Source: Candidatus Hodarchaeota archaeon
Lineage (GTDB): Archaea > Asgardarchaeota > Heimdallarchaeia > Hodarchaeales > Hodarchaeaceae
Length of the DNA: 25,763 nt
NCBI GenBank assembly: GCA_016839815.1
Contig: JAEOTM010000083.1
Coordinates: 1 to 25,763, forward strand
Reading direction: 5' to 3'
The notes beneath the pieces are model-generated. The model worked only from the letters and a program-made list of their open reading frames with translations, had not been told where the DNA came from and made no database searches. A program made the translations under genes and the position numbers. Shown here in pieces: positions 1,916-11,071 of this stretch (positions within the stretch are counted from its first letter, which is position 1; each line of letters starts with the position of its first letter).

Positions 1916-2162
1916 TTTTAATTTACTATCCTTTCTAAATAAAATCCGATCAATAATTTAGGTACGTGGATGTCCTTAAGGAAACTCTATTTTGAATAAG
2001 TTCCGAAGAACCTTTTAATTATAGTTTTTGTGGTAAAAAAAATACAGAAAAATGTATGAATTTATTTAGAAAAGTCATCTTATACAGTTTTTCTTTATCA
2101 TATTCTCGGAATTAACATCTGTTAAGTTAGTCTATTATCTATAATAACTATAATATAATGTC

Positions 2163-2176
2163 GAAAGGTTTTTAAC
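2163..2176 (+). promoter_or_regulatory. Putative BRE/TATA core promoter of the dsrE-tusA-hdrA/qmo block
   Basis: GAAAGG-TTTTTAAC about 120 nt upstream of dsrE; near-identical GAAGG-TTTTTAAT upstream of tusA2 (8431-8443). Confidence 0.5.
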
Positions 2177-2204
2177 TCAATGTAAATAACCCAAGGTTGA
2201 CTAC
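2168..2204 (+). promoter_or_regulatory. Triple SurR-box-like operator array
   Basis: GTTtttAAC-tcaat-GTAaatAAC-ccaag-GTTgacTAC: three GTT-n3-AAC-like units with 5-nt spacers. Confidence 0.7.
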
Positions 2205-2294
2205 CAGCTTTACAAATCCTCGAGGTTCATTTTCTTTATGAATTAGATGGCCAATGATTCTCGAAGTAGTTAAAGTACAGAATGAGTTGATAAA

Positions 2295-2717
2295 ATGGAA
2301 GAAGAAACTGAAAAAATCACCATTGTAGTTTTTTCAGGCGCAGTTGACAGATTGGTTGGGATGTCAATCCTAACAAACGCTGCTATTGCAATGGACTATG
2401 CAGTAGACATTTTCTTAATGTTTTGGGGTACATATGCTTTCAAGAAAGACGTGTTACTTACAAATAACACACTGAGTGAACACTTGGACTTTACTGGAGA
2501 AAAATTTATTGATGCATTAAAGACTGGTGGTATCTCCCCTTGGTATGAAATGCTAAAGCAAGCAAAAGAATATGGAAATGTGAATGTATATGTCTGTTCT
2601 GCCTGCGGTAAAGCATGGCAGGCTAAACTGGAAGACTTAGAATTTGTTGATGATTTTGTAGGTGCTGGTGAAATAGTGTATACCAGTACACAATCAAAAG
2701 CAACCTATTTTATCTAA
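2295..2717 (+). CDS. dsrE: DsrE/DsrF-like (DsrE2-type) sulfurtransferase
   Basis: IVVFSG..D, IFLMFWG, VYVCSAC (active-site Cys region), VGAG and terminal TYFI are typical of the DsrE2/DrsE-like family; next to tusA. Confidence 0.85.
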   Translation: MEEETEKITIVVFSGAVDRLVGMSILTNAAIAMDYAVDIFLMFWGTYAFKKDVLLTNNTLSEHLDFTGEKFIDALKTGGISPWYEMLKQAKEYGNVNVYVCSACGKAWQAKLEDLEFVDDFVGAGEIVYTSTQSKATYFI

Positions 2718-2739
2718 AAAACGAAATGAGGTGCTAATT

Positions 2740-2991
2740 ATGGCTGAAGATTTAGTAAATATGAAATCAGATCATCTGGTTGATGCCCGTGCGGAAAGTT
2801 GTCCTGGTCCTTTACTAGCGGCAAAAAAAGCAATGACGAAAGTCCCTATGGATGGTATTCTCGAAGTTTGGTCTGCGGATGCAGGTACAAAACGTGATAT
2901 TCCTCTATGGTGTAAAAAGATCGGTCATGAATACCTAGGTGACGTTGAAGACAAGGGTTATTTTAAAATTTTCGTAAAACGTAAAAGGTAA
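2740..2991 (+). CDS. tusA: TusA/SirA-family sulfur carrier (copy 1)
   Basis: VDARAESCPGP (D-x5-CPxP), D.GT..DIP.W, about 83 aa; GAGGTG SD-like sequence precedes ATG 2740. Confidence 0.93.
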   Translation: MAEDLVNMKSDHLVDARAESCPGPLLAAKKAMTKVPMDGILEVWSADAGTKRDIPLWCKKIGHEYLGDVEDKGYFKIFVKRKR

Positions 2992-3005
2992 GTCTATTTG
3001 TTTAT

Positions 3006-3037
3006 AGAGACGGGTCCAAAACCCTTTTCTCTTTTTT
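3006..3037 (+). terminator. Putative hairpin plus T-tract terminator/attenuator after tusA1
   Basis: AGAGA-c-GGGT ccaaa ACCC-ttt-TCTCT running into T6. Confidence 0.5.
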
Positions 3038-3104
3038 AACTAACAGTGTACAAAACTTGACCTACTATACTAAAAAAATTCGTTATCGGTTTAAAGTGAT
3101 TTGA

Positions 3105-3512
3105 ATGACTCGAAAAAGTGAAGATCAACCAAAAATACTTATTTTTACTACAAATTTAATTTCTGATCCTGCAGTAGATCAAACCGGGCTACTTCATAAA
3201 CATTATACAGCATCTACTTCTCTAATTCGTGTTCCATGTTCTAGCATGGTTAGAGCTGATTTTGTATTACTTGCCCTCCAAAGTGGTTTTGATGGGGTTT
3301 TTATTACTGCTGATGGTGGCGATTGTCCATTTACTGAGAAATGTCCAGAAAAAACCTCTGATAGAATCCAAGAAGCAGTCGAGCTTCTTGAGAGTAATAA
3401 CATTGACGTTAATAGGTTGAAAATGGCCGCAATCTGTTCTGTATGTGTTGAACCATTTTTAAATCATGTTAAAACCTTTTCTGAAAAATTGAAAGGATTA
3501 AATGCATCTTAA
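3105..3512 (+). CDS. mvhD: MvhD/FlpD-family iron-sulfur protein, atypical cysteine pattern
   Basis: PKILIF, IRVPCS, GFDGV and RL motifs align with the canonical MvhD at 18300-18743, but the N-terminal CxxC is absent. Confidence 0.8.
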   Translation: MTRKSEDQPKILIFTTNLISDPAVDQTGLLHKHYTASTSLIRVPCSSMVRADFVLLALQSGFDGVFITADGGDCPFTEKCPEKTSDRIQEAVELLESNNIDVNRLKMAAICSVCVEPFLNHVKTFSEKLKGLNAS

Positions 3513-3529
3513 TAAAGGTAGGTTTGACT

Positions 3530-4831
3530 ATGAGTAAAGATTATGATGAATATGATACTTTGATAATAGGCGCTGGAATAGCAGGGATAGAAGCGGCGCT
3601 TACTTTAGGAGATTCAGGTCGAAATGTCCTACTCGTTGAAGAATCCCCTACAGTTGGAGGTAAAATGGCGCAATTAAGTAAGGTTTTTCCTACCCTTGAT
3701 TGCAGTGCATGTATTGCCACCCCAAAAATGGCTAGTGTTGTATATCACCCCAATGTGACCTTATTATCTTATTCTTCAATAGATGAAGTTATAAAACAGG
3801 ACGAAGCGGATTTTAGAGCAAAAATCACTATGAAACCAAAATATGTGGAATGGGATGATTGTACTGGTTGTTCACTGTGCGAGATGGCTTGTCCAGTTAT
3901 CGTAAGCGATGAATATCAGTATCATATGAGAGGAAGGAAGGCTGTGTATATTGCATTTGATATTGCTGTCCCTAAAAAATCTGTGGTTGATATTGAGAAT
4001 TGCATATTTTGTGGTGCATGTGAAAAAGCCTGCCCTACCAGTGCAATCAATTTCCTTCAGAAAGCTGTTACTAAAAAAGTTCGAGTAAAATCTGTTCTAC
4101 TCACCACAGGATTTGAATTGTTTGATGCTACGCTGAAACCCGATTTTGGGTATGGTCAAAGTAAGAATATAATAACCGCAATGCAAATGGATCGGTTATT
4201 AGCCCCAACTAGACCATATAATACTGTTCAACGTCCCTCTGACGGAAAAGAACCGGGAAAAATAGCTTATTTGTATTGTGTAGGCAGTCGTGATAAAACT
4301 GTGGGGAACGAGCTCTGTTCTCAAATCTGTTGTATGTATTCAATTAAACAATCCCAATTAATCCTTGGAGCCTTACCACTAGCTGATGTATTTTCATTTT
4401 ATATAGACATCCGAGCCCAAGGTAAAGGTTTTGAGGAATTTTATCAACAAGCAAAGGATATGGGTGCTTTCTTCATCAAAGGACGAATTATGTACGTAGA
4501 TGAAGAAGAAAATGGAGATGTCCTAGTAAAATATGAAGATATTGATGATGGAGGGAAAATAAAGGAAGAAGCTTTTGATTTAGTTGTTTTAGCTGTTGGT
4601 CTTTGGCCATCAATAGCTGGCATTGCTAATGTGTTCAAGAATGTTCAACTGGAAACTGATGAAATAGGGTGGGTTGAATGCCCGTTGTGTAACCCTGTTG
4701 AAACAAATGTTCCAGGAATTTTCGCAGCAGGATGTGTGACTGGTCCTAAAGATATTCCTGATACAATTGTAGAAGCAAACGCAGCTGTTTCGCAATGTTT
4801 AGCTTATATTGAAACACACAATGGAGAGTAA
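3530..4831 (+). CDS. hdrA: HdrA-like flavoprotein, core module with inserted 2x[4Fe-4S] (QmoA-like position)
   Basis: GAGIAG FAD motif, KVFPTLDCSAC, CTGCSLCEMACP and CIFCGACEKACP, CVGSRD...CSQICC, AGCVTGPKDI; lacks the HdrA N-terminal domain and C-terminal ferredoxin. Confidence 0.9.
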   Translation: MSKDYDEYDTLIIGAGIAGIEAALTLGDSGRNVLLVEESPTVGGKMAQLSKVFPTLDCSACIATPKMASVVYHPNVTLLSYSSIDEVIKQDEADFRAKITMKPKYVEWDDCTGCSLCEMACPVIVSDEYQYHMRGRKAVYIAFDIAVPKKSVVDIENCIFCGACEKACPTSAINFLQKAVTKKVRVKSVLLTTGFELFDATLKPDFGYGQSKNIITAMQMDRLLAPTRPYNTVQRPSDGKEPGKIAYLYCVGSRDKTVGNELCSQICCMYSIKQSQLILGALPLADVFSFYIDIRAQGKGFEEFYQQAKDMGAFFIKGRIMYVDEEENGDVLVKYEDIDDGGKIKEEAFDLVVLAVGLWPSIAGIANVFKNVQLETDEIGWVECPLCNPVETNVPGIFAAGCVTGPKDIPDTIVEANAAVSQCLAYIETHNGE

Positions 4832-4836
4832 AAGAA

Positions 4837-6573
4837 ATGTCAAAAGAATCAAAAAAACGTATAGGAGTCTATGTTTGTCATTGTGGTGGAAATATTTCAG
4901 ATGTTGTAGATGTTAAAACTGTTGCTGAAGAAGCAGAAAAACATCCAAATGTTGCTCTTGGAAAAGAATTCATGTTTATGTGTTCTGATGCTGGCCAACA
5001 AATGATTGTTGATGATATTAAAGAGCAAAACCTTGACGGACTTGTAGTAGCATCATGTTCCCCTAAATTACATGAAATAACGTTTATGAATGTTGCTGAA
5101 AGAGCAGGCCTAAATCCTTACGAATTTTATCATGTAAATATCAGGGAAGATGCATCATGGCCTCATTCTGATGATCCTAAAGGAGCAACCGAAAAAGCAA
5201 TTCGTATGGTTAATGCTGGCATTGAATATGTTAAACTAACTTCTCCACTAGCAAAAATTCAGGTTAATACTACTAAAAGAGTTTTAATAATTGGCTGCGG
5301 AATTGCAGGTGTAAGAGCAGCAGTAGATTTAGCTAGAATGAATATAGATGTTGTTTTAGTAGAAAAAGAAGATGTACTCGGAGGATATACCCCTAATATC
5401 TATAAAACTTATCCTGAGGGTAAAACAGGGGTAGAAATTCGAGATGAAATGGTTGATCAATTGAACGAATCTGAAGACAAAATCGAACTCTATACTAATT
5501 CTGAGGTTTCTGGTGTATCCGGTTATATCGGAAATTTTGTTGTACAAATCAAGAATAAAAATTCGGGGCAGGAAATACAAAAATCGATAGGAATCATAAT
5601 TGTTTCAACTGGTTTTAAATCTTATATTCCTAAAGATGGAGAATATGAATATAATAGCCATAAAAATGTTATTACGTTACCTGATTTTATGAAGCTTCTA
5701 AACAAGCATGAAAATACCGAGGAACTCTTCATAAATGGCCAAAACATCAATAAAATCGGATTCATTTATTGTGTTGGTTCAAGACAGCAAAATGTTGGAG
5801 GGGATGAACCAGTTAATGAGTATTGCTCACGATTTTGTTGTAATGCTACAATATTTCTTACAACAGAACTTCAGAAAAGATTTCCGAAACTCTATAGTTA
5901 CCATTTTTACCAAGATATCCGAACATATGGTAAAAACGAAGCTCATTATCTAACAGCTAGAGAAAATGGTGCAGTATTCCTTAAATATGATCCATATACA
6001 CCAGTAGAGGTTGATACAACGAGCGAAGGCATTAATGTTACCATCATGGATATACTTACTGAAAAGGAAAAGATCACTGTTCCTCTTGACCTACTCGTGC
6101 TCGTTACTGGAATGGAAGCAAGAGAGAATAAAAAATTAGAGGAATTAATAAAAATCTCTCCTGGTCTCGATCGGTTTTACAAAGAATCTCACCCTAAACT
6201 TAAACCAGTAGAAACAGGAAGAATGGGAATTCTTCTTGGTGGAACATCCCAAGCCCCTAGGGATATTTCCGAGACGTTAGCTTCTGCTTCTGCCGCAGCA
6301 GCAAAAGCTGCGAGTTTTGTGTTAAAGGGGGAATTAATGTTAGAACCTGCAGTTGCAACTGTTGATCCTAATATCTGTGAGAATCATCAGAAGTGTATAC
6401 CTGAATGTCCCACGAATGCTATCGAAACCCAAGATGAAAAAGCTGTTGTTAATGAAGCATTATGTATAGGATGTGCAATTTGTACAGCTGTATGTCCAAC
6501 AGAGGCTATTCAGATAAAAACTCTTACGACAACTCAGATCAGGGAAATGATTAAATCTATGGCGAAATCATAA
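4837..6573 (+). CDS. hdrA: HdrA-like flavoprotein with N-terminal FeS domain and C-terminal ferredoxin (QmoB-like, no fused MvhD)
   Basis: VYVCHCG...MCS...SCSP, GCGIAG, CVGSR...CSRFCC, HPKLKPVET, C-terminal CENHQKCIPECP and CIGCAICTAVCP. Confidence 0.9.
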   Translation: MSKESKKRIGVYVCHCGGNISDVVDVKTVAEEAEKHPNVALGKEFMFMCSDAGQQMIVDDIKEQNLDGLVVASCSPKLHEITFMNVAERAGLNPYEFYHVNIREDASWPHSDDPKGATEKAIRMVNAGIEYVKLTSPLAKIQVNTTKRVLIIGCGIAGVRAAVDLARMNIDVVLVEKEDVLGGYTPNIYKTYPEGKTGVEIRDEMVDQLNESEDKIELYTNSEVSGVSGYIGNFVVQIKNKNSGQEIQKSIGIIIVSTGFKSYIPKDGEYEYNSHKNVITLPDFMKLLNKHENTEELFINGQNINKIGFIYCVGSRQQNVGGDEPVNEYCSRFCCNATIFLTTELQKRFPKLYSYHFYQDIRTYGKNEAHYLTARENGAVFLKYDPYTPVEVDTTSEGINVTIMDILTEKEKITVPLDLLVLVTGMEARENKKLEELIKISPGLDRFYKESHPKLKPVETGRMGILLGGTSQAPRDISETLASASAAAAKAASFVLKGELMLEPAVATVDPNICENHQKCIPECPTNAIETQDEKAVVNEALCIGCAICTAVCPTEAIQIKTLTTTQIREMIKSMAKS

Positions 6574-6590
6574 CTGAAGGTGTTCTTAAG

Positions 6591-6899
6591 ATGAGTCAAG
6601 AAAGTAATGAAAAATCGAGAGAGAAAAAGAAAACACTAACGGTTAGAGAATACAAAAAACAAACTGGTGCAACCATTAGTGAAGAACTAAAGGAACGAAA
6701 TAAAAAGAATAACAAAACCCGAAAAGCTATTTTTAAAGCAATGGAGGACGGACCAAAAACTGTTCCTGAAATTTCACTTGAATCTGGAATCCCTTCCCAT
6801 GAAGTCTTGTGGCATGTGGCAACTAGCTTGCGTTATCGGTTGGTTGAACCAGTAGAAAAAACTGATGAGGACTACTGGAAGTATAAACTAAGTAAATAG
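6591..6899 (+). CDS. Small winged-helix (wHTH) protein with basic N-terminus
   Basis: RKAIFKAMEDGPKTVPEIS..SGIPSHEVLWHV...LVE...YWKY matches a wHTH pattern; tightly spaced within the operon. Confidence 0.7.
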   Translation: MSQESNEKSREKKKTLTVREYKKQTGATISEELKERNKKNNKTRKAIFKAMEDGPKTVPEISLESGIPSHEVLWHVATSLRYRLVEPVEKTDEDYWKYKLSK

Positions 6900-6907
6900 G
6901 TGAATTA

Positions 6908-8053
6908 GTGATGGTTGTTGCAGATCAGAGTATTACTGTTAATACAGAAGTTTTTGAGAATATTAAAAAGATGGGAGCTTTTGATGTCTCTGCTTGCATG
7001 AACTGTGGTATGTGTACTGTTTCATGTCCACTATCAGTTTCTGGAAACGAATTTCCTCGAAAATTAATAAGATATGCAGTTCTAGGATTGGATGAGAAGC
7101 TAGTTTCACATCCAGAACCGTGGTTGTGCTATTATTGTGGGGATTGTTCCGAACAATGCCCAAGTGAAGCTGAACCGGGAGAATTTATGATGGCAACCCG
7201 ACGGTATTTGACCTCAAGATATGATTGGACTGGTTTGTCAAAGAAATTTTACCTTTCAGAAAAATGGGAAATTGGAGCTCTTATTGGATTAGCACTCCTA
7301 TTCTTAGGTATTTTTATTGTCGCAAATCTTACAGGAATTAGTAAAATGCAGGGAGATAATGTATCGATTGATACTTTCGCCCCGATTGATTGGATCCATC
7401 TTGGTGATCTCATTCTAGGCGGGACGTTGGCTATTTTTTTACTTTCCAATGCTTTTAGAATGTTTTATTACATCATACTGAATGATAAAAGTGTTAAAGT
7501 ACCAATTAAGCTTTATTTCACAGAGATAAAGGCATATATTGTAGCTGGATTCAGTCTTGTTGCTCAATATCGATGGTTATCGTGTGATAATAGATGGCGA
7601 TGGTTAAAACATTTATTCCTCATGACTGGTTATATCACAATTTTCACTCTTGTTGTTGTATTTATTGATATATTTCAAGTAGATGATACAAGTTGGAACA
7701 TAACCTCACTTTTAGGGTACTATGGTACAGTCGCATTATTGTTCGTAACTCTTGAAGCAATGTGGAGCCGATACAAAAAGAAAGAACAGATGCATAAATT
7801 TTCCCACCCAACAGATTGGTTATTTTTAATACTTCTATTTTTAACTGCAACAACAGGTATTCTTTTGCATTTATTCCGTCTTATGAACTTTGCATATCCG
7901 AGTTATTATATTTACGTTATTCATATCATGATTGCGGGACCCATGTTAATAATAGAAGTCCCATTCGGCAAATGGTCACATATGCTTTATCGGCCACTCG
8001 CAGTTTATTTAGCAACAGTAAAGGAAAAAGCTATCAGTATAGCAGGATCATAA
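6908..8053 (+). CDS. qmoC: QmoC-like subunit: HdrC-like 2x[4Fe-4S] domain fused to a NarI/HdrE-like cytochrome-b membrane domain
   Basis: CMNCGMCTVSCP, FPRKLIRY, WLCYYCGDCSEQCP; about 6 hydrophobic segments with histidines (KHLF, LLHL, VIHI, PFGKWSHMLYRP). Confidence 0.85.
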   Translation: MMVVADQSITVNTEVFENIKKMGAFDVSACMNCGMCTVSCPLSVSGNEFPRKLIRYAVLGLDEKLVSHPEPWLCYYCGDCSEQCPSEAEPGEFMMATRRYLTSRYDWTGLSKKFYLSEKWEIGALIGLALLFLGIFIVANLTGISKMQGDNVSIDTFAPIDWIHLGDLILGGTLAIFLLSNAFRMFYYIILNDKSVKVPIKLYFTEIKAYIVAGFSLVAQYRWLSCDNRWRWLKHLFLMTGYITIFTLVVVFIDIFQVDDTSWNITSLLGYYGTVALLFVTLEAMWSRYKKKEQMHKFSHPTDWLFLILLFLTATTGILLHLFRLMNFAYPSYYIYVIHIMIAGPMLIIEVPFGKWSHMLYRPLAVYLATVKEKAISIAGS

Positions 8054-8060
8054 GATGTGA

Positions 8061-8297
8061 AAACTAGTGAATTTAGAGTGGTAACTAGTTTAAAAGCAAG
8101 AAAACCTGAAAGAAGCGTGAGTAATCTAATAAATTCATCGAACTACTAATACTTAACAAATTCTAATAGAATTTAAATCAATGTTATTAGATTCTTTCAC
8201 TCTTTTACAATAATTTTCATTCTTGTCCCCCTCTTGGGGTAAATAGTATTTTACGTTTGAACTTCACTATAGATTCACTATAGTTTACTTAGGGGGA
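8061..8297. repeat. Cluster of inverted repeats and a short direct repeat in a 570-bp intergenic region
   Basis: AAACTAGT/ACTAGTTT (8061/8084); AATCTAATAA/TTATTAGATT (8123/8184); AAATTCTA-A-TAGAATTT (8158-8174); TCCCCCT/AGGGGGA (8226/8291); TTCACTATAG x2 (8263, 8274). Confidence 0.55.
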
Positions 8298-8430
8298 AAT
8301 ATCGCGTAACATCAATATTGAGTATTGATGATCATAAGAGGACTTTTGCACTTGCAGATAGAAATTAAATTATGAAGCTAATATAATATAAAAGATAAGA
8401 GAAACGCATTTTTGGTGAAATGATGCGACA

Positions 8431-8444
8431 GAAGGTTTTTAATT
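8431..8444 (+). promoter_or_regulatory. Putative BRE/TATA promoter of tusA2-yedE
   Basis: GAAGG-TTTTTAATT, similar to 2163-2176. Confidence 0.5.
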
Positions 8445-8457
8445 AAATAGCTTTATT

Positions 8458-8494
8458 GTTGTTAACTAGACGTAAATAACTTTGAGTTATTAGC
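8458..8494 (+). promoter_or_regulatory. Triple SurR-box-like operator array
   Basis: GTTgttAAC-tagac-GTAaatAAC-tttga-GTTattAGC; same architecture and identical middle unit as 2168-2204. Confidence 0.72.
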
Positions 8495-8622
8495 AGATAG
8501 CAAGTACGCACACGTTTCACTCTATATAGCCAATAGGCACAGAATTCATCTGTTAATTTCTCTATGAAATATTTATGTTTTGTATATTTCAAAAACTTAA
8601 CTCAATAAAGGATAGACAAAAT

Positions 8623-8853
8623 ATGGTAGAAGCTAACCTGACATTGGACTGTAAAGGTCTTTCATGTCCAATGCCAATTGTAAAACTAAACGCAACCATT
8701 AAAAAAATCGAAGTTGGACAAGTGCTAGAGATGCTCGGAACTGATCCAGGTTCCAAAAAGGATGTACCTCTTTGGTGCCAAAAAACTGGAAATGAATTAC
8801 TAGAGACAATCGATGAAAGTGGCGTGTTCAGGTTTTATATCCGAAAAAAATAA
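8623..8853 (+). CDS. tusA: TusA/YeeD/YedF-family sulfur carrier (copy 2)
   Basis: LDCKGLSCPMP, TDPGSKKDVPLWC; ATG 8623 gives a typical 76-aa protein; directly upstream of the YedE-type transporter. Confidence 0.93.
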   Translation: MVEANLTLDCKGLSCPMPIVKLNATIKKIEVGQVLEMLGTDPGSKKDVPLWCQKTGNELLETIDESGVFRFYIRKK

Positions 8854-8867
8854 ATGAGGTTTTGTTT

Positions 8868-10085
8868 ATGTCAGAAAAAGGAATGTTTAGTGGTCTTTAT
8901 GACACTTTATTCGGCGATTCATGGAAGATGTGGATTGGGGCAATTATTCTATCTTTTTTTAGTATCTGTCTCTTCATAATCATGTCTCCTTGGGGCGCTT
9001 CAGGTGGTGTTCTTAACTGGGGTGACAATATTATTAAACCCCTTGTTGGTGAAACCGCTACTGAAATTACTAAGCATCGATATGCAATGTTGAATATTAC
9101 GATTGTGATCGGAGCTTTTTCCAGTGCATTACTAGCAAAGCAGTTTGCTCTTCGAATTCCTCCATTAGGAGAGCTTTTGAAAGGGTTAATTGGTGGTTTG
9201 TTAATTGGTATTGGTTCAATAATAGGGAGTTCCTGTACTCTTGGAGGTTTTTACAGCGGATGGCCAGCAATGTCGGTTGGTGCTCTTATCTTCACATTAG
9301 GATTAATAATCGGGACTTTCGTTGCTGTTTATTATCTAATGTGGGAAGCTGAAAAATACCCAGGTATTAGCAGCGGGACAACAAAAACTCTTCTGAGTAC
9401 CGGTAGCTGGCAACCCTATGTTGGAATAATTATGTTCATTGTAGGACTTGGATTCCTCTTCCTATTTCCAACTACTCCAGAGAAAATTCTTGAAGGATCC
9501 CTTGTTATGATGGGATTTACCTTTTTTGGACTCCTAATCGGATTTGTTCTTCAAAGATCAAGATTCTGCATAGTTAGAGCTTTGAGAGAACCATTCATGA
9601 CTGGTGAAACATCCGCAACTACTGCTGTTTTCGCTGGTATCATTGTGGGACTTCTTGGATTTGTTGCAATGAAGCTCTGCGGTTTTGGTACAGGCGCTTC
9701 ACAGACAATGTTTGTTTTTGGGAATGTTTGGATTTCCGGTTTAATAGGTGGAATCATATTTGGTGTAGGAATGACAATCGCAGGCGGTTGTGTTGTAGGT
9801 TCACTATGGCGTGCAGGTGAAGGTCAAGTCAAACTTTGGTTTTCAGTTATTGGAATGGTTATTGCCATGCCACTAACGAATTCTTTCAAAACACAGTTCT
9901 TAGAATGGACTGGTGGTAAAGCAAACATTACTGATGCAATGTATCTTCCAGATATCTTCTTTGATATCTTTGATGATCTTCTTCTCAGTTATTTAGGCGC
10001 AGTACTTTTCATTCTATTCCTAATACTGCTCTGGTTCATTGTAGTAAAATGGAATGAGAAATCAGGAAAACTCTCCCGAATGTGA
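8868..10085 (+). CDS. yedE: YeeE/YedE-family sulfur-compound transporter (YedE-like domain order)
   Basis: Polytopic, Gly-rich; PWGASG, SSCTLGG, QRSRFCIV, AGGCVVGSLWRAGEG contain the three family cysteines; GAGGT before ATG 8868. Confidence 0.9.
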   Translation: MSEKGMFSGLYDTLFGDSWKMWIGAIILSFFSICLFIIMSPWGASGGVLNWGDNIIKPLVGETATEITKHRYAMLNITIVIGAFSSALLAKQFALRIPPLGELLKGLIGGLLIGIGSIIGSSCTLGGFYSGWPAMSVGALIFTLGLIIGTFVAVYYLMWEAEKYPGISSGTTKTLLSTGSWQPYVGIIMFIVGLGFLFLFPTTPEKILEGSLVMMGFTFFGLLIGFVLQRSRFCIVRALREPFMTGETSATTAVFAGIIVGLLGFVAMKLCGFGTGASQTMFVFGNVWISGLIGGIIFGVGMTIAGGCVVGSLWRAGEGQVKLWFSVIGMVIAMPLTNSFKTQFLEWTGGKANITDAMYLPDIFFDIFDDLLLSYLGAVLFILFLILLWFIVVKWNEKSGKLSRM

Positions 10086-10106
10086 GAAAACCATTCAACA
10101 TTAACA

Positions 10107-10134
10107 GAGAGGTATAATCCTCTCCTCTTTTTTT
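10107..10134 (+). terminator. Hairpin plus T7 terminator after yedE
   Basis: GAGAGG tataat CCTCTC ctc TTTTTTT. Confidence 0.6.
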
Positions 10135-10303
10135 ATCTCAAAGCGTGATGCATTGCTTTTCTCGATATACCGTTCGAGGAGGAGACATCTGAAATAAAAA
10201 TGATATTTTCTGATTGATTGATCCAAAATCTCTGATCTAGGAACATTTATATCATCATTCAGGCAGCTAACAGACACAAAAGAAATTCGATAAGTTGAGT
10301 GCA

Positions 10304-11071
10304 ATGGATAAATATGATTGTAGTTTGAGTCATCCGATTTATGATCTTCTATCTAATAAAACCAGGCTAGAAATATTAAGATTAATTGCCTGTGAAAAAA
10401 ACTATGGTAGCAGAATTGCTTCTATTTTAAAAATATCTGCCCCTGCAATTCATAGGCATTTGAAAATTCTTTCTGGAAAGGTGGAAAGTGAGGATATTGG
10501 TGAGTTTGCGTTTCTAAAATCTTCTGAGACCACACGAGAAAGTTATTCTGGACACAAAGGTGCAGAGGCCACTATGTATGAGATAGGGTCCAAATTATTT
10601 CTTACATTTGCAATCTATCCGAATTTCGTACACTCACACGCATTTCTCACTCCAGTTAAAGATGAAATAGCAATTACGGATCAAAAGACTCAATCCCAAA
10701 AGAAAAAAGAAAAAACTAGTAAATCAGAAGACAAAGCGGAAATTAAACGTAATTTTACAAATATATATAATAAGATCCAAGAAAAAAATGATCAGATCAA
10801 TAAGCTTGAACAAGAAATCCTTCAGATCTTTTTAGAGAAAGATGAGCTAATGAAACAATTGGATGAAGCAATTTTGGAAAAAGATCATTTGCTTGATTAT
10901 GATGAACGAGTTAGTATACGTACATTAGCATGTCAGGGGCCTAATTGCATTCCAAATCTGCCTGAACTTCTAAAACAAGATGAGGAACTGGTTAAAAAGA
11001 TTCTTCGAAATCTTAAAAGCCAAAATTGGTTTGATATTCTCGATGAAAAGATAAACTACAAGACTTCCTGA
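10304..11071 (+). CDS. ArsR-superfamily regulator with SurR-like architecture (wHTH - coiled coil - wHTH)
   Basis: N-terminal LLSNKTRLEILRLIACEKNY...ISAPAIHRHLKIL, then YEI...FAIYP, heptad-rich coil, C-terminal helix-turn-helix-like segment; 255 aa. Confidence 0.8.
   Translation: MDKYDCSLSHPIYDLLSNKTRLEILRLIACEKNYGSRIASILKISAPAIHRHLKILSGKVESEDIGEFAFLKSSETTRESYSGHKGAEATMYEIGSKLFLTFAIYPNFVHSHAFLTPVKDEIAITDQKTQSQKKKEKTSKSEDKAEIKRNFTNIYNKIQEKNDQINKLEQEILQIFLEKDELMKQLDEAILEKDHLLDYDERVSIRTLACQGPNCIPNLPELLKQDEELVKKILRNLKSQNWFDILDEKINYKTS

Follow-up and report, generated by a model that had tools for sequence, protein, structure and literature searches.

SurR, a transcriptional regulator of Pyrococcus furiosus (PF0095; PDB 2qlz and 2quf), binds the DNA motifs GTTn3AAC and GTTn3AACn5GTT, activates genes from sites upstream of the TATA box, represses them from downstream sites, and leaves the DNA once its cysteines are oxidized by sulfur (PMC12162507). 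The literature places SurR in the Thermococcales, and the available text of papers naming both SurR and Asgard archaea describes no Asgard homologue. Here, we describe two arrays of SurR-like boxes in a contig of a Candidatus Hodarchaeota archaeon (Asgardarchaeota; GenBank assembly GCA_016839815.1, contig JAEOTM010000083.1), each at the promoter of a sulfur-carrier operon, together with a nearby gene for a SurR-like regulator of the ArsR family that probably binds them. The window that we analyzed is the entire contig of 25,763 nucleotides (25.8 kb; C25 below), which belongs to a metagenome bin of 4.24 Mb with 36% G+C, 89.5% completeness, and 7.8% contamination; no archaeal small-subunit rRNA gene was found in it.

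A comparable setting has been described in the bacterium Hyphomicrobium denitrificans. In the available portions of those reports, sHdrR and SoxR are sulfane-sulfur-responsive, ArsR-type repressors that accompany YeeE-like SoxT importers; they are encoded beside Hdr-like, TusA/DsrE, and YeeE-type genes, for which repression until sulfur is sensed has been proposed (PMC12423496, PMC10451225, PMC11582611). The Hodarchaeota locus follows the same gene neighborhood logic as far as those portions describe it, and the likeness rests on gene neighborhood; those repressors are bacterial, and the Asgard regulator can be aligned with SurR across its two winged-helix domains and the long helix that lies between them. 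The Pyrococcus heat-shock regulator Phr (PDB 2p4w) is the second-best fold match of the Asgard protein (E 1.9e-3), with poor overlap (template modeling [TM] score, 0.26-0.35). The palindromic site of Phr contains TAAC-n5-GTTA, the same dyad as that formed between neighboring boxes here. Phr, however, has a heat-shock regulon and a single palindrome rather than phased triplets.

SurR itself is the closest described system. As in SurR, the box is GTTn3AAC with a second GTT 14 bp after the first, the predicted protein joins an ArsR-type winged helix at its N terminus through a long helix to another winged helix at its C terminus and was modeled here as a dimer, the proposed targets are sulfur-related redox genes, and the sites lie downstream of a TATA-like element, as they do at SurR-repressed genes. 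Unlike SurR, the system belongs to an Asgard host and not to the Thermococcales, and its regulator has no CxxC motif; the first cysteine is kept, and C9, C213, and C218 are conserved instead. The arrays are full three-box arrays, one box of which doubles as the TATA-like element in dsrE promoters, and the apparent regulon is small and local (sulfur-carrier and Qmo/Hdr-like genes) rather than a global hydrogenase/MBS switch. No counterpart of the SurR regulon, with its hydrogenase (mbh and sh) and sulfur reduction (mbs, nsr, and pdo) genes and the regulator's own gene, was recovered, as the arrays stand only at the dsrE-Qmo/Hdr-like and tusA-yeeE promoters. The DNA element would work like a SurR operator, and the protein is a structural relative of SurR, but three features that define SurR fail: the CxxC switch, the global hydrogenase/sulfur reduction regulon that includes the regulator's own gene, and the exact extended motif, which differs by a single base. 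The array-regulator pair is best filed as a SurR variant from another phylum with another regulon.

Three-box arrays at two sulfur-carrier promoters

An initial annotation of this DNA, made from the letters alone, had reported arrays at 2168-2204 and 8458-8494, at the promoters of two sulfur-trafficking operons. The exact sequences are found there (Table 1), and the promoters are those of the dsrE operon (operon 1) and the tusA-yeeE operon (operon 2). Also borne out were its descriptions of a 14-bp period, which spaces the three GTTn3AAC-like units in both arrays, and of identical middle units separated by dissimilar spacers (identical at 2/5 and 0/5 positions). The SurR motifs that it had given, GTTn3AAC and GTTn3AACn5GTT, agree with the published ones (PMC12162507), and the boxes match the first of these, as their designation as SurR-like implied. 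The core motif is perfect in unit 1 of each array, and the remaining four units agree at 5/6 positions. Both window arrays fall one base short of the exact extended motif, since their middle unit begins with GTA; the first two units of both fit GTTn3AAC-n5-GTAn3AAC, with the 14-bp phase intact. On a second contig of the bin, C189, the array of a dsrE operon read on the gene strand does contain the exact GTTn3AACn5GTT.

Single GTTn3AAC boxes are frequent in the genome (1954 strand-counts), and therefore only the phased array is informative. We scored the 4.24-Mb genome with an a priori model of three GTTn3AAC units at period 14, with 18 scored positions, which was derived from the SurR literature independently of these sites. 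A score of 16/18 was reached at four positions, namely, the two window arrays and two on C189, each located on the promoter of a dsrE-tusA-Qmo/Hdr-like or tusA-yeeE operon. In five order-3 Markov genomes, no position scored at least 16, and a score of 15 occurred 2.4 times per genome. When periods of 9 to 24 were scanned, matches of at least 16 appeared at period 14 alone and at none of the 15 other periods. All other genome positions scoring 14 lie within a stop-free frame of at least 100 amino acids, save for shifted copies of a C189 array. A weight matrix built from the sites gave the four arrays 27-31 bits and everything else less than 18 bits, apart from one shifted copy, and a relaxed regular expression built from the two window sites matched, genome-wide, only these two and one independent site (C189:16792), upstream of the homologous tusA-yeeE genes.

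The arrays are not due to chance. The initial annotation had said that its claim would fall if such triple arrays were common in random intergenic DNA, and they are absent from the rest of the genome's intergenic DNA. Neither consensus nor weight matrix scoring found any further array in the genome by which the regulon could be extended, and the same scans found none at the Mvh/Hdr genes of the window.

C189 carries a second dsrE-Qmo/Hdr-like operon, which is divergent from a second tusA-yeeE-regulator unit. Positions 2284-25127 of the window are collinear over ~23 kb with C189 of the same bin (G000:C189:10791-33652) at 71-76% nucleotide identity, a range that also holds for coding DNA, and the dsrE-qmoC operon is inverted. 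Because the other genomes of the genus carry at most one copy of the locus each, and given the contamination of the bin, the two loci may derive from two co-binned relatives rather than being paralogues of one genome. Whether paralogues or co-binned relatives, they provide a comparison at a useful distance.

Footprinting was based on C189 and genomes from GTDB. Conservation in related genomes had been named as a test of the arrays, and they are kept. Among four tusA-yeeE promoters (from the window, C189, and two metagenome-assembled genomes [MAGs] labeled as Hodarchaeota), the array is identical at 34-37 of 37 positions and forms the longest invariant block, with indels in the leader 3' of it. 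Array 2 and its C189 counterpart are identical at 34/37 positions, and the linkers between TATA-like element and array are identical at 5/15. Across six dsrE promoters, the pattern cGAAA(A/G)GTT(T/A)5A(C/T)-n5-GTW..., of which the part before the spacer covers the TATA-like element, is retained while the rest drifts. Between the dsrE arrays of C25 and C189, the GTT/AAC positions are identical at 14/18 and the remaining positions at 7/19. Judged from these alignments, the arrays are footprints. Pooling 36 units gave G27 T34 T31 R W T27 A29 A31 C29, or GTT(A/G)(A/T)TAAC, and the spacers had no consensus.

Arrays of the same box also adjoin the regulator gene in other Asgard genera (loci L007, L009, L033, and L037), where the genes that follow them are tusA, NifX-like (PF02579) genes, and a GlcD/HdrD-like FAD/CCG fusion. 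From these predicted sites, the regulon seems to differ among lineages. Within the genus, a two-box pattern occurs only at the regulator loci of three genomes (G000, G052, and G053) and in one match in G051, a genome with no regulator match; this single match is about the rate of the reversed-pattern control (5 matches in 22 genomes). A metagenome scan with the two-box DNA pattern returned at least 80 loci. Among the matches listed, none encodes a relative of the genes described here and none has a third box, and for these reasons we judged them to be chance matches. As observed in individual loci, phased boxes stand near regulator copies at L007 9343-9379, L033 5312-5362, and L037 1493-1543, before the NifX-like (PF02579) gene or the GlcD/HdrD-like fusion.

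A SurR-like regulator beside the arrays

The protein encoded at 10304-11071, to which the initial annotation had pointed, is a SurR homologue by both sequence profile and fold. Searched against the PDB, the family profile matched SurR best (2qlz, PF0095; E 6.5e-7), over residues 12-75 and, weakly, 157-244. In the AlphaFold model of the 255-amino-acid protein (predicted local distance difference test [pLDDT] score, 79.5), the N-terminal winged helix is followed by a long helix (145-195) and then by C-terminal helices. The top four Foldseek matches of the model are SurR chains (2qlz/2quf; 237-248 columns; TM, 0.47-0.60). Profile and Foldseek together recover the architecture of the SurR family, with an N-terminal ArsR-type winged helix-turn-helix, a central helix, and a C-terminal winged helix-turn-helix. 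Traits of the ArsR/SmtB family are likewise present, including HTH_5, the NCBIfam model NF033788, and linkage to sulfur-carrier genes by synteny.

The regulator was modeled as a homodimer with a score of 0.81 (best control, 0.00), with runs agreeing on at least 92% of contacts and a partner pLDDT of at least 75. The same mark is reached by 20/30 solved homodimers and 1/23 single chains, and because SurR dimers are solved, the result may reflect likeness or memory only. Four cysteines, C9, C33, C213, and C218, are conserved in the family, and the nearly invariant C33 aligns with the first cysteine of the SurR CxxC.

The family forms 20 clusters among 5.8 billion proteins, and its named sources are all Asgard MAGs. 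Members occur in 13/83 genomes of the class and always adjoin a Qmo/Hdr-like operon, and in the source genome the only SurR-like genes sit beside the arrays. The closest relatives of the window protein include P0004 (81% identity), P0005, and P0008; with P0006, these regulators span identities of 62-81%. No relative emerged from a metagenome scan with the regulator protein profile. The regulator is present in two or three copies in L007, L033, L036, and G001; in L007 and L033, two of them flank the Qmo/Hdr-like operon.

Promoter geometry and proposed control

The initial annotation had read the promoters as having repressor geometry, with array 1 overlapping a putative TATA box and array 2 just downstream of one, over the expected start site, and had cautioned that the first unit of array 1 is partly the TATA box itself. 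The caution applies in all six dsrE promoters, where unit 1 is also the TATA-like element. The geometry is upheld in part. In its favor are the conserved GAA-n2-TTTTTAA element before array 2 and a linker of 15 nucleotides (nt) between this element and the array, which is fixed in length and variable in sequence in the four promoters. The distance from array to start codon is variable, and the fixed linker thus supports the pairing of TATA-like element and array. On the other side stands a second TATA-like block nearer the tusA start, and both the TATA boxes and the start sites are putative. The RAARGTTTTTAA word (as a 12-mer class) is also found 48-87 nt upstream of three unrelated open reading frames, and TTTTTAA ranks with the most strongly enriched 7-mers in the regions that precede genes in this genome.

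In archaea, the center of the TATA box usually lies ~26 bp from the start site. With this spacing, starts would be predicted near 2198 and 8465, which would place array 1 at about -30 to +6 and array 2 at about -7 to +30. Both arrays would then lie inside the space needed by the TATA-binding protein (TBP), transcription factor B (TFB), and polymerase. Just 5' of the CGAAA element of the dsrE promoter, at 2143-2160, there is also a TAACTATAATATA-like block that is retained in all six aligned dsrE promoters and could be an alternative TATA box or another site.

We consider it probable that the arrays are operators of the local SurR-like regulator and that their effect is repressive. A regulator dimer, or several dimers side by side, would recognize the phased GTT(A/G)(A/T)TAAC boxes. 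At the dsrE operon, box 1 would double as the TATA-like element and the other two would fill the space up to the expected start, and at the tusA-yeeE operon the boxes, beginning 15 nt downstream of the TATA-like element, would span the expected start. Because the boxes overlap either the TATA-like element or the expected start, bound regulator would deny TBP/TFB or RNA polymerase access to either promoter. By analogy to SurR and the bacterial sulfane-sulfur repressors, binding would be lost when conserved cysteines are oxidized or persulfidated, and TusA-YeeE sulfur import and the DsrE/TusA/Qmo-Hdr-like complex would be switched on together. This proposal builds on what the analysis shows, namely, that the arrays exist, are unique within the genome, and are conserved, and that the regulator is homologous to SurR and syntenic; the identity of the binder, the sign of regulation, and the signal we infer.

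Several points weigh against the repressor proposal. The second cysteine of the SurR CxxC aligns with an invariant N36, and thus this motif is not kept. No array lies upstream of the regulator gene, in which it differs from the autoregulated surR. Relatives whose regulators are ~35% identical (L034-L036 and L038-L040) have no comparable boxes, and operon 1 itself encodes another winged-helix protein (6591-6899). Distances of 125 and 185 nt separate the assumed TATA boxes from the start codons, so that the implied leaders, of ~95 and ~155 nt, are long; genome-wide, TATA-like words peak, weakly, at 41-80 nt before start codons. A second conserved block with a TATTTA core also lies ~50 nt before tusA, and this block keeps an activator interpretation alive.

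According to that interpretation, the same regulator would bind the arrays as upstream activating sites and, as SurR does at hydrogenase genes, recruit TBP/TFB to core promoters nearer the start codons, such as TATTTA at ~8570 for tusA. The A/T-rich block before tusA is conserved and falls at the distance where TATA-like words are commonest in the genome, and SurR activates when it is bound upstream of the TATA box (PMC12162507). However, the distance between array and block is not kept but changes by indels, including a 41-nt gap in C189, whereas the distance to GAA-n2-TTTTTAA is fixed. In addition, the dsrE promoters have no conserved TATA-like word 3' of the array, and their box 1 carries a prefix, CGAAA, that resembles a B recognition element (BRE). 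On balance, we regard activation from the arrays as unlikely. A conserved AGGATAGA word is found just 5' of the tusA ATG, after the TATTTA block, and by their sequences the two could be a second promoter and a ribosome-binding site.

The arrays might instead be bound by another protein, such as the 102-amino-acid winged-helix protein of operon 1 or an unlinked factor, with the SurR-like gene as a bystander or coregulator. In every lineage compared, this small protein keeps its place between the qmoB-like and qmoC-like genes, and its winged-helix fold has weak matches to MarR/ArsR repressors (best E 1.9e-3). We find such a binder quite improbable, as the boxes were found a priori with the SurR motif and adjoin the genome's only SurR-like genes, while the small protein has no cysteine for sensing and its fold matches are generic. 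Furthermore, in two loci its reading frame stops at the start of the following gene or runs into it, as would be expected of an enzyme subunit. The protein could be a subunit or a second DNA-binding protein. It has a basic N-terminal helix, is cysteine free, and is encoded in the same place at L033 10935-11225 and L009 8011-8298.

Although the units are A/T rich and partly self-complementary and the window arrays flank operon 1 as direct repeats, it is very improbable that they are no protein sites at all but RNA leader structure, repeated TATA-like A/T-rich words, or recombination relics flanking a 6.3-kb operon. The arrays form weak RNA folds that vary from copy to copy (z, -0.6 to -2.0), and no Rfam family was matched in the window. 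Read on its gene strand, the C189 dsrE array has its order reversed, the GTT/AAC positions alone are conserved, and matches occur at period 14 only. The idea of a recombination site or cassette border was rejected, since both C189 arrays lie in one divergent promoter region, 195 bp apart, and thus do not flank a cassette.

A broader scenario can be put forward tentatively. Asgard archaea of the Hodarchaeota type may possess a self-contained sulfur switch, in which a SurR-descended regulator has lost the CxxC and uses C9, C33, C213, and C218, phased three-box operators include one box that doubles as the TATA box and thereby sets regulator and TBP in competition for 9 bp, and TusA-YeeE imports the releasing signal. 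In that case, SurR-type control would be an ancient module of archaea rather than peculiar to the Thermococcales. The idea of an imported signal parallels the bacterial SoxT-sHdrR circuit.

To our knowledge, gene regulation in Asgard archaea is almost unstudied. For this locus, a short DNA motif, its exact sites, and a probable (predicted) binding protein are all defined from sequence, which makes the regulator and these sites a pair open to experimental testing. The response of the regulator to reductant versus polysulfide would indicate the purpose of the operons. The retention of the DNA motif despite the loss of the CxxC also amounts to a natural experiment in how a redox switch moves within one regulator fold.

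Gene content of the locus

The features of the window that bear on the arrays are collected in Table 1. We know of no established role in these organisms for the DsrE/TusA relay, the Qmo/Hdr-like complex, or the YeeE-type importer.

Table 1. Arrays, promoter elements, and genes of the window (positions within the 25,763-nucleotide contig)
Feature	Position	Strand	Basis or remark
Array 1, three 9-bp units	2168-2176, 2182-2190, 2196-2204	+	Period 14 bp; 16/18; 26.9 bits
Array 2, three 9-bp units	8458-8466, 8472-8480, 8486-8494	+	Period 14 bp; 16/18; 31.1 bits
BRE/TATA-like element of dsrE operon, CGAAA-GG-TTTTTAAC (= CGAAAGGTTTTTAAC)	2162-2176	+	Last 9 bp are unit 1 of array 1
BRE/TATA-like element of tusA-yeeE operon, GAAGGTTTTTAA	8431-8442	+	GAA and TTTTTAA unchanged across four orthologous promoters
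Second, partly conserved A/T-rich block with TATTTA core, possible alternative core promoter	8560-8596	+	~50 nt before tusA start; alignment columns 163-195
Operon 1, proposed to be controlled	2295-8053	+	Pfam, NCBIfam; same gene order in 9 related loci
DsrE	2295-2717	+	Operon 1
TusA	2731-2991	+	Operon 1
MvhD-like protein	3105-3512	+	Operon 1
Two HdrA/Qmo-like flavoproteins	3524-4831, 4837-6573	+	Operon 1
Small winged-helix protein, 102 amino acids	6591-6899	+	Operon 1
QmoC-like membrane subunit	6908-8053	+	Operon 1; NCBIfam qmoC 9e-52
Operon 2, proposed to be controlled	8623-10085	+	Pfam, NCBIfam
TusA	8623-8853	+	Operon 2; start 8623 set by C189 alignment
YedE/YeeE-type sulfur transporter	8862-10085	+	Operon 2
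SurR-like ArsR-family regulator, 255 amino acids, proposed array binder	10304-11071	+	HTH_5 9.2e-7; PDB profile; Foldseek

Directly 3' of yeeE, at 10100-10135, a G+C-rich inverted repeat is followed by a T run, and a TTTATAT word is located ~45 nt before the start codon of the regulator. Given these two elements, the regulator gene seems to have a promoter of its own, one with no box array.

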